DNA from: Escherichia phage vB_Eco_Titus
Sequence record: OX090892
DNA length: 40,010 bases
Strand: one strand, 5' to 3'
The notes below the pieces were generated by a model. It was not told the origin of the DNA. It searched no databases and was given only the letters and a program-made list of their open reading frames with translations. The position numbers were made by a program, and so were the translations under genes. This document shows, one piece after another, positions 2,036 to 2,734 of the stretch (positions within the stretch are counted from its first letter, which is position 1; the number at the start of each line of letters is the position of its first letter).

Positions 2036-2221
2036 ATGCGTAACCCTGAAGTAGTAAAGATTAAATCAAACAAGGCTCGCCGTTCAGACGAGGAGATGGA
2101 ACTCATTAATGAGCGTAAGTTCAAAGGTGAGGTACGCCGCAAGGTTCGTGCTGCTAAGCGTGAACGTACTCGTTTGTGGGCTGAAGGTGAATACGAAGGA
2201 GGTGACCGCTATGCGCACTGA
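2036..2221 (+). CDS. Hypothetical small basic protein (61 aa)
   Basis: ATG with GAGGT 5 nt upstream; Arg/Lys-rich (RRKVRAAKRERTR); no recognisable homology. Confidence 0.45.
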   Translation: MRNPEVVKIKSNKARRSDEEMELINERKFKGEVRRKVRAAKRERTRLWAEGEYEGGDRYAH

Positions 2222-2525
2222 TAAAGGTTATTCAAACTTGCGTTACTTCTCACGCCGTAAGGACGCTGGGATGATGGGTGTCTTTTATAATCATGTGCTG
2301 ACACAAAAGCAGCAGAAGAATATTGAGACTATCCTGTTCAAATCTGGTGACGATGGTTACAATGCCATCAAGTTACCTAACGGTGAGATTCTATTTCATC
2401 GTGAGTTCCTTGAGGCAACATTCAAGAAGGCTGTGTCTGTGTACGCAAGCACTGTCGATATGTCCATTTCATCCAGTCTAGCATTCAAGGCATTAGGCGA
2501 AGTTCTTGAACTACGAGGTGCATAA
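2211..2525 (+). CDS. Hypothetical protein (104 aa)
   Basis: ATG at 2211 preceded by GGAGG (2198-2202); overlaps stop of upstream ORF (ATGCGCACTGA); track ORF 2109..2525 has an implausible upstream start overlapping the previous gene. Confidence 0.45.
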   Translation: MRTDKGYSNLRYFSRRKDAGMMGVFYNHVLTQKQQKNIETILFKSGDDGYNAIKLPNGEILFHREFLEATFKKAVSVYASTVDMSISSSLAFKALGEVLELRGA

Positions 2526-2734
2526 TGAAACCTACCATCATGGGGAGACAAGTGTTAAAGAGTGTTCACAGAGATTTAATCCGTATGGAGTACGTCTTTG
2601 TGTTCGGTGATTGCGTTACCGGTGAACAGTATCCTGTGCGTCTATATTCCTGTGACTTTGAGGACATGCGCGAGGGTGAATACAAGGCGTTCCACCGTCT
2701 CTGTACTAAACTCTGGCCGGAGCAACCACTATGA
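2525..2734 (+). CDS. Hypothetical protein (69 aa)
   Basis: ATG overlapping upstream TAA, GAGGTG upstream; stop overlaps primase start (ATGA); no recognisable homology. Confidence 0.4.

Follow-up and report, generated by a model that had tools for sequence, protein, structure and literature searches.

Three small genes ahead of the primase gene

In Escherichia phage vB_Eco_Titus (sequence record OX090892; a stretch of 40,010 nucleotides (nt), hereafter the window), the segment from position 2036 to position 2734 is taken up by three small open reading frames (ORFs), named ORF1, ORF2 and ORF3 here, whose coding status, family relationships and possible functions are examined in the following sections. 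A preliminary description, made from the sequence alone, had placed ORFs of 61, 104 and 69 amino acids (aa), packed with overlapping stop and start codons, between the gene of the host RNA polymerase (RNAP) inhibitor gp2 and that of a primase/helicase. Its coordinates and overlaps are as claimed, and the flanking genes are correctly named: the upstream gene (1784-1951, 55 aa) matches the Pfam family RNA_pol_inhib (expectation value (E) 1.7e-8), and the downstream gene encodes a primase/helicase of the T7 type. Over the region 1700-3000 the sequence shows 100% identity to the Escherichia phages vB_Eco_Mak (OX001577.1, hereafter Mak) and vB_Eco_Bam (hereafter Bam; unclassified Studiervirinae), and in the deposited Mak record each of the three products bears the name 'hypothetical protein'.

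2036-2221, plus strand: ORF1 (Mak_007); ATG at 2036, TGA at 2219-2221; 61 aa, isoelectric point (pI) 10.1; Shine-Dalgarno (SD) sequence GAGGT at 2026-2030
2211-2525, plus strand: ORF2 (Mak_008); ATG at 2211, TAA at 2523-2525; 104 aa, pI 9.4; SD sequence AAGGAGGT at 2196-2203
2525-2734, plus strand: ORF3 (Mak_009); ATG at 2525, TGA at 2732-2734; 69 aa, pI 6.7; SD sequence GAGGT at 2515-2519

The strongly basic character ascribed to ORF1 is borne out by its pI and by 18 lysine and arginine residues against 12 aspartate and glutamate residues, and the protein ends in an acidic C-terminal tail. The ATG of ORF2 lies inside a longer, mechanically called ORF of 138 aa that starts at 2109, and the start is taken as 2211 because both the family alignment and the strong SD sequence AAGGAGGT favor it. 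ORF1 and ORF2 overlap by 11 nt (ATGCGCACTGA), ORF2 and ORF3 by 1 nt (TAATG), and ORF3 and the primase gene by 4 nt (ATGA). Translational coupling of the three ORFs is possible, and we leave it at that strength because each start is preceded by its own SD sequence at normal spacing, and because Aeromonas relatives such as phage T7-Ah show no overlap at the ORF1/ORF2 and ORF2/ORF3 junctions; the arrangement is conserved at the ORF3/primase junction only.

The coding status of the three ORFs can be judged from six related metagenomic contigs (L005-L009 and L023), which share 93-99% nt identity with the window. All six carry the three ORFs intact and unchanged in length. Among these relatives, the ratio of non-synonymous to synonymous substitution rates (dN/dS) is 0.05-0.21 for ORF2 and 0-0.16 for ORF3, the comparison of ORF3 with L005 yielding 10 synonymous and 0 non-synonymous differences, and in both genes the substitutions are concentrated at third codon positions. 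Conservation and coding signatures in related genomes, the lack of which the preliminary description had named as the finding that would speak against these genes, are thus both present, the former in the kept lengths and the latter in the synonymous-substitution bias of ORF2 and ORF3. ORF1 is nearly invariant among the close relatives (0-2 differences in 183 nt; protein 98-100% conserved), which makes dN/dS uninformative, and it is taken as coding because Aeromonas phages (57% identity) and the Vibrio phage ICP3 encode protein-level homologues. An RNA or DNA element embedded in ORF1 was considered as a reason for its nucleotide conservation and dropped, since the genes of the primase, the single-stranded DNA-binding protein (SSB) and the endonuclease also show only 0-3% diversity. 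Codon usage, scored as log-odds with the 18 long genes of the window as the training set, favors the annotated frame of each ORF, with positive values there (0.66 bits per codon for ORF1, 0.35 for ORF2 and 0.08 for ORF3) and negative ones in the other five frames.

Judged by these signatures, all three ORFs are genuine protein-coding genes. That one or more of them might be untranslated, the frames being open by chance in a leader ahead of the primase gene, is scarcely credible and largely refuted: ORF3 has no library profile match and a codon score below the minimum of 0.16 seen in the long genes, and ORF1 offers too few substitutions for the dN/dS test, but the substitution patterns of ORF2 and ORF3, the presence of protein-level homologues of all three in distant phages, confident AlphaFold2 models for ORF2 and ORF3, correctly spaced SD sequences and codon usage that is positive in the annotated frames only all speak against it.

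Transcription unit and the probable relation of ORF1 to gp1.1

The three genes are preceded by two elements well known from T7 and followed by two further genes, which together delimit a predicted transcription unit:

1926-1948, plus strand: predicted phage-RNAP promoter AATTAACACCCACTATTGGAAAC, overlapping the 3' end of the gp2 gene; presumed +1 near G1943
1957-2006, plus strand: predicted RNase III hairpin of the T7 type, with a lower stem, an internal loop and a 10-bp upper stem (AAGGTCATTC/GAGTGGCCTT)
2731-4422, plus strand: primase/helicase gene (homologue of T7 gp4), whose ATG overlaps the ORF3 stop codon (ATGA)
4423-4605, plus strand: orf60, encoding a hydrophobic protein of 60 aa (phrog_6006, E 2e-7); last gene of the unit, before the promoter at 4608-4630

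The 23-mer promoter motif, which resembles the T3/T7 promoter consensus, occurs in 14 copies in the window at up to 3 mismatches, all of them on the plus strand, where 0 are expected by chance. The hairpin has a predicted folding energy of -20.9 kcal/mol (z -3.2), and its core is identical to the T7 RNase III site R1.1 at 38 of 39 positions. An RNAalifold consensus of 12 copies and orthologues, comprising the window copies and the sites from T7, four Aeromonas phages and two metagenomic relatives, contains 17 pairs, and compensatory changes are seen in 8 of these. The order of promoter, hairpin and small basic gene is common to every relative examined and parallels phi1.1A-R1.1-1.1 in T7.

Since the promoter at 1926 is followed by the next promoter only at 4608 and by the next hairpin at 4941, we define the unit as ORF1-ORF2-ORF3-primase/helicase-orf60 and assign it to class II. 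The three ORFs would therefore be co-transcribed with the primase gene from a phage promoter, at the head of a middle unit, where use of the promoter and cleavage by RNase III are predicted by analogy with T7. Of the earlier designation of the three as 'early/middle' genes, the middle part stands, given the phage-RNAP promoter, the class II assignment and the position at the head of the primase operon; early transcription by the host RNAP does not.

The likeness to the T7 1.1 region extends to the protein encoded by ORF1. T7 gp1.1 (phrog_2490) is, like ORF1, a tiny and very basic protein that combines an acidic patch with the motif KR..W-E at the C-terminus, and its gene likewise lies directly behind one or more phage promoters and a nearly identical RNase III hairpin (phi1.1A/B and R1.1 in T7). 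A BLASTP comparison of ORF1 with T7 gp1.1 (42 aa) gives E 0.003 and 33% identity across the entire gp1.1. When composition-preserving shuffles are used as the reference, the match of Mak ORF1 to T7 gp1.1 has p = 0.004, with an overall range of 0.001-0.05, and the ORF1 homologues of Aeromonas phages reach p <= 0.002 against several gp1.1 proteins. At the profile level, hhalign aligns five ORF1-family sequences with eight gp1.1 proteins at a probability of 47.6%, and after the addition of three metagenomic family members (8 in total) this value rises to 88.6% (E 2.7e-6), over gp1.1 residues 2-42. A hidden Markov model (HMM) of the enlarged ORF1 family has the gp1.1 proteins of phages K1E (E 5e-4), POP72, PM85 and UAB_Phi78 as its sole matches outside the family. 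Both groups share the same order of motifs, with an N-terminal (R/T)N(F)xK, an acidic middle part and a C-terminal KG..K..R..KR.(N)WE.

On this basis ORF1 is quite probably a diverged homologue of T7 gp1.1, and the preliminary statement that none of the three resembles a T7 protein no longer applies to it, given the sequence and profile matches and the R1.1-like layout. Several results weigh against this assignment. The gp1.1 HMM scores ORF1 at only E 6.4, the first, smaller HMM of the ORF1 family did not match T7 gp1.1, and a phmmer search of Mak with T7 gp1.1 found nothing, while an exhaustive phmmer search with ORF1 over 1.84 billion representative proteins returned ORF1 itself only; the link is thus visible at the profile level alone. 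Furthermore, ORF1 and gp1.1 are placed in separate PHROG families (11648 and 2490), and the RNase III hairpin is generic, with five copies in the window, which makes the R1.1 match a less specific pointer to gene 1.1. These points would be expected if ORF1 were unrelated to gp1.1, that is, an independent short basic peptide whose likeness stems from its composition and its place behind a generic RNase III site. We give this explanation a small but real chance, as it has to account for an hhalign match that spans the whole of gp1.1, for shuffle controls that preserve composition and still reach p <= 0.001, for out-of-family matches of the enlarged HMM that are confined to gp1.1 proteins, and for the common motif order.

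Some differences accompany the proposed homology. ORF1 is about 20 residues longer than T7 gp1.1, and its gene follows those of ligase, deoxynucleoside monophosphate (dNMP) kinase and gp2 and precedes ORF2, whereas T7 gene 1.1 follows gene 1 and precedes gene 1.2. A position beside gene 1 is not universal for the gp1.1 family, as K1E and UAB_Phi78, of the SP6/K1E group, have their gp1.1 gene immediately ahead of the primase gene, which provides a precedent for ORF1 adjoining the primase module. If the assignment is correct, the conserved unit would be the combination of promoter, RNase III site and gene, rather than the place beside gene 1, and ORF1 would extend the gp1.1 lineage, which is among the last function-less T7 proteins, to the clade of the Vibrio and Aeromonas phages and Mak.

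The ORF1 family also bears on an existing annotation in ICP3 (L003, HQ641340.1; 1734-1979), where the annotated orf13 (1771-1956) begins inside an RNase III-type hairpin. A different frame at this place (ATG at 1827, about 50 aa, MSFIKIKSKKPRRNHEELAELRKAKRKGEDRKK...) matches the ORF1/gp1.1-like HMM at E 1.2e-9 and has an SD sequence of its own, so that the deposited orf13 coding sequence (CDS) is probably in the wrong frame.

ORF2, ORF3 and the divergence islands

ORF2 belongs to a family of its own, being matched to phrog_5138 (annotated as of unknown function) at E 7.2e-10, with residues 6-101 aligned to profile positions 14-118 of 121. Its homologues in tblastn searches come from T7-like phages of Aeromonas, Vibrio (ICP3 orf16) and Pseudomonas, and a search with the family profile recovers at least 177 proteins or clusters, which lack a Pfam domain and nearly all lie on contigs of about 40 kb. 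As far as these homologues tell, the family is confined to T7-like phages of Vibrio, Aeromonas and Pseudomonas and to this coliphage, ORF2 being the only member of phrog_5138 seen so far in a coliphage lineage. The gene always heads the replication module, following a 1.1-like gene in Mak and in the Aeromonas and Vibrio group, and following, with an overlap, the gp2 gene in Pseudomonas phages.

Residues G20, F62, F71 and E97 are invariant in the family, and an N-terminal F..K..GM(A)G motif is nearly so. The named members of phrog_5138, namely ICP3 orf16, QOC54744 of the Aeromonas phage T7-Ah and the proteins of the Pseudomonas phages phiIBB-PF7A, PPPL-1 and phiPsa17, share these four residues and the GM(A/M)G with ORF2, along with the predicted fold and the position at the module head. 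Compared with them, ORF2 is the shortest (104 aa against 106-131 aa) and is 21-40% identical.

An AlphaFold2 model of ORF2, built from an alignment of 119 sequences, has a predicted local distance difference test score (pLDDT) of 90.7 and a predicted template modelling score (pTM) of 0.81. It comprises helices at residues 17-29, 32-45, 64-81 and 86-101 and a hairpin at 52-63, which form a compact arrangement of four helices plus a beta-hairpin. Foldseek searches of BFVD with this model return members of the same family only, namely those of ICP3 (TM-score 0.86), phiIBB-PF7A (0.86) and T7-Ah (0.74), at E 2e-7 to 3e-6, and the family profile matches neither a T7 ORF nor a PDB sequence. The predicted fold is therefore one for which the searches made yield no solved or characterised relative, and a widespread family of T7-like phages with a confident model unlike characterised structures is a reasonable target for structural and functional work. 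Among its metagenomic members, P0090 (206 aa) carries an unrelated N-terminal extension of 100 aa, which resembles a 73-aa ORF upstream of ORF2 in contig L024 and may represent a fusion or a read-through gene call.

The position of ORF2 also invites comparison with T7 gp1.2, the inhibitor of the host dGTPase (phrog_2949), since 1.2 follows 1.1 in T7 as ORF2 follows ORF1, and both proteins are small (85 aa for gp1.2). ORF2 has neither sequence nor fold similarity to gp1.2 (PDB 2MDP, 7U65), and an identification as gp1.2-like was rejected. It might still be a non-homologous functional replacement that keeps the order of 1.1 and 1.2. A phmmer search of Mak finds no homologue of gp1.2, nor any of gp0.3 (Ocr), gp4.5 or gp5.9, and the distributions look complementary, with gp1.2 homologues found only in phages of Enterobacterales and the ORF2 family in Vibrio, Aeromonas and Pseudomonas phages and Mak. 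Even so, we regard such a replacement as very unlikely.

For ORF3, profile scans of Pfam, NCBIfam and PHROGs give no match, and tblastn over 50,697 phage records finds it in Mak and Bam only. The corresponding slot in phages T7-Ah, JELG-KS1, phiA014S and ICP3 is filled by a gene of 65-75 aa, which usually overlaps the start of the primase gene. The proteins encoded in this slot are homologous to one another (T7-Ah against ICP3, E 5e-9) and match phrog_11152 at 7e-51 to 4.5e-4. When ORF3 and P0131 are aligned by hhalign with nine Aeromonas and Vibrio members of this family, ORF3 being excluded from the target, the probability is 84.7% (E 6.6e-6, 62 columns), and the AlphaFold2 model of ORF3 (pLDDT 88.9) has a beta-beta-beta-alpha topology. 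By profile comparison and position, ORF3 is probably a divergent member of the small beta-beta-beta-alpha family phrog_11152. With members such as ICP3 orf17 (VP3_0014) and T7-Ah QOC54745 it shares the position, the overlap with the primase ATG and the residues D29, T32-G33-E34 and Y36 (a D-x-x-T-G-E-x-Y loop) as well as L59 and W64 (a C-terminal L...W), and it differs from them in being only 20-30% identical, in having no PHROG-profile or tblastn match of its own and in occurring, within a single phage species, as at least two alleles of 59% identity. Phage PT2 and contig L025 lack an ORF3-type gene, and ORF3 is therefore considered dispensable.

The allelic variation of ORF3 is part of a wider pattern. 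Nucleotide diversity, calculated in 60-nt windows across five species-level relatives, is 0-3% in ORF1 and in the genes of the primase, orf91, SSB and endonuclease, and rises to 11-26% over 2261-2700, with 11-13% in ORF2 (2261-2500) and 19-26% in ORF3 (2561-2680), and to 15-18% in orf60 (4421-4540). orf60 thereby constitutes a third divergence island, and the variable genes lie on both sides of the primase gene. In L023, aa identity falls to 84.6% for ORF2, 59.4% for ORF3 and 66.7% for orf60, against 97.6-100% for the flanking proteins, including 99.8% for the primase. In ORF2 the variable residues are located in helices 32-45 and 64-84, while neither the N-terminal motif nor the hairpin varies. 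In the core of ORF3 (codons 9-49), synonymous sites are saturated, with a proportion of synonymous differences (pS) of 0.79 and of non-synonymous differences (pN) of 0.43, and the overall dN/dS (omega) is 0.31. Saturated synonymous sites at such an omega point to a distant allele brought in by recombination and not to rapid change in situ, and positive selection on the divergent allele, which was also considered, is unsupported for the same reason. The two islands ahead of the primase gene reassort independently, because L009, which combines an ORF2 allele of the L023 type with an ORF3 allele of the Mak type, agrees with L023 at ORF2 and differs from it at ORF3. In summary of these patterns, ORF2 and ORF3 have the traits of accessory cargo that can be exchanged: they are held under purifying selection and are replaced by divergent alleles among phages with flanking genes of 97-99% identity. 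Such islands around a nearly invariant primase gene are a signature used to nominate accessory and counter-defence genes, and ORF2, ORF3 and orf60 are thereby concrete candidates in a tractable E. coli phage.

Possible roles, and other features of the window

The remote-homology searches and structure predictions that the preliminary description had called for thus connect ORF1 with gp1.1, ORF2 with phrog_5138 and ORF3 with phrog_11152. Three 'hypothetical proteins' are thereby placed in an ordinary T7-like genome anatomy, and current views of T7-like genomes are unchanged. A curated function is attached to none of the three, as had been noted at the outset: Pfam, NCBIfam and PADLOC contribute nothing, and the PHROG families concerned are all annotated as of 'unknown function'.

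With moderate confidence, we favor the view that these three genes, which open a middle unit read by the phage RNAP, encode non-enzymatic proteins that bind host factors and serve host takeover or counter-defence. Host takeover and anti-defence had been named in the preliminary description as typical of small early/middle genes in T7-like phages, and the standing of ORF2 and ORF3 as allelic divergence islands supports the idea indirectly. All three would be non-enzymatic because they are too small for, and lack the motifs and folds of, catalysis, and they would bind host components stoichiometrically, neutralising or redirecting them at the time when replication of the phage DNA starts. ORF1, as a relative of gp1.1, may contribute to host shut-off by binding nucleic acids or ribosomes; co-expression of gp1.1 with Ocr is reported to lead to an effective shut-down of host protein synthesis (PMC7064336). 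Apart from this remark on shut-off, literature searches on Mak and Bam, on ICP3 orf16 and orf17 and on the function of gp1.1 yielded no functional study.

A number of observations count against a role in takeover or counter-defence. No partner or phenotype is on record for any of the three proteins. Scans of PADLOC, Pfam and NCBIfam with the three proteins and with whole family alignments give noise only, and the PDB sequence search with the family profiles gives nothing; PADLOC has 0 matches for the three ORFs themselves, a result obtained with no search aimed at an anti-defence library. Neutral mosaic recombination at dispensable loci can also produce divergence islands, which are no proof of an arms race, and dN/dS never exceeds 1, even across the divergent ORF3 alleles (0.31).

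Within the host-directed view, a more specific proposal is put forward tentatively and with a minor chance of being right, namely that ORF2 and ORF3, and perhaps orf60 as well, act as counter-defence or takeover inhibitors that have so far gone unrecognised. ORF2 would represent a new fold whose invariant hairpin and N-terminal GMAG motif bind a host factor by beta-strand addition, for which a resemblance of ORF2 to ET domains is a weak hint. An arms race with host systems that detect or attack T7-like DNA replication as it begins would then lie behind the alternative alleles.

The main alternative to a host-directed function is a role in the replisome. ORF3, and possibly ORF2, could be an accessory factor or modulator that acts on gp4, in its loading, its oligomerisation or the regulation of its primase, and that is produced in a fixed ratio to it by translational coupling. 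The layout is consistent with such a role, as the gene of the ORF3 family overlaps the primase start in Mak, T7-Ah, JELG-KS1, ICP3 and L024, the ORF2 family always heads the replication module, and all these genes share one promoter-to-promoter unit with the gp4 gene. Yet PT2 and L025 manage without ORF3 and have otherwise similar primases, and in Pseudomonas phages ORF2 is followed by the SSB gene, the primase gene being far off. Moreover, the core of ORF3 is swapped for a 59%-identical allele next to a 99.8%-identical primase, so that the two do not co-vary, and overlapping start and stop codons are common in T7-like genomes regardless of function (1.7/1.8, 2.8/3 and 5.5/5.7/5.9 in T7). We therefore consider a replisome function unlikely. 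The value of the three genes is moderate and lies in their use as a candidate source for functional screens.

The remaining observations concern the neighbouring genes and the window as a whole. The primase ATG at 2731 is backed by an alignment in which the N-terminus matches that of T7-Ah gp4 (MSDEYGESESVF...) from the first residues on, and the gene calls of every related contig agree with it; in the Mak GenBank record, the primase/helicase CDS starts at record position 7416, which corresponds to window position 2764. Besides its gp4, Mak has homologues of the T7 proteins gp0.6A, gp5.5, gp5.7, gp6.5, gp6.7 and gp7.3. The repeated promoters and hairpins of the window are located as follows:

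876, 1926, 4608, 6684, 11554, 14395, 15372, 19744, 27949, 34180, 34950, 38869, 38972 and 39744 (start positions), plus strand: copies of the promoter motif, consensus AATTAACACCCACTATTGGAGA
4941, 6651, 11522 and 32067 (positions of AGGTCAT): further intergenic hairpins AAGGTCAT...GTGGCCTT, with stem covariation

Two of these hairpins stand directly before promoters, the one at 6651 before 6684 and the one at 11522 before 11554, and the 14 promoter copies together provide a promoter map of this phage, the record of which has no regulatory annotation. Finally, compared with OX001577.1 the window is a circular permutation, in which roughly the last 4.6 kb (approximately 35360-40010) correspond to the left end of that record, with the RNA polymerase gene and its neighbours; the permutation is read from an identical ORF at 37505-37663 in the window and 2146-2304 in the record, and from the gp0.6A homologue at 35200-35349.

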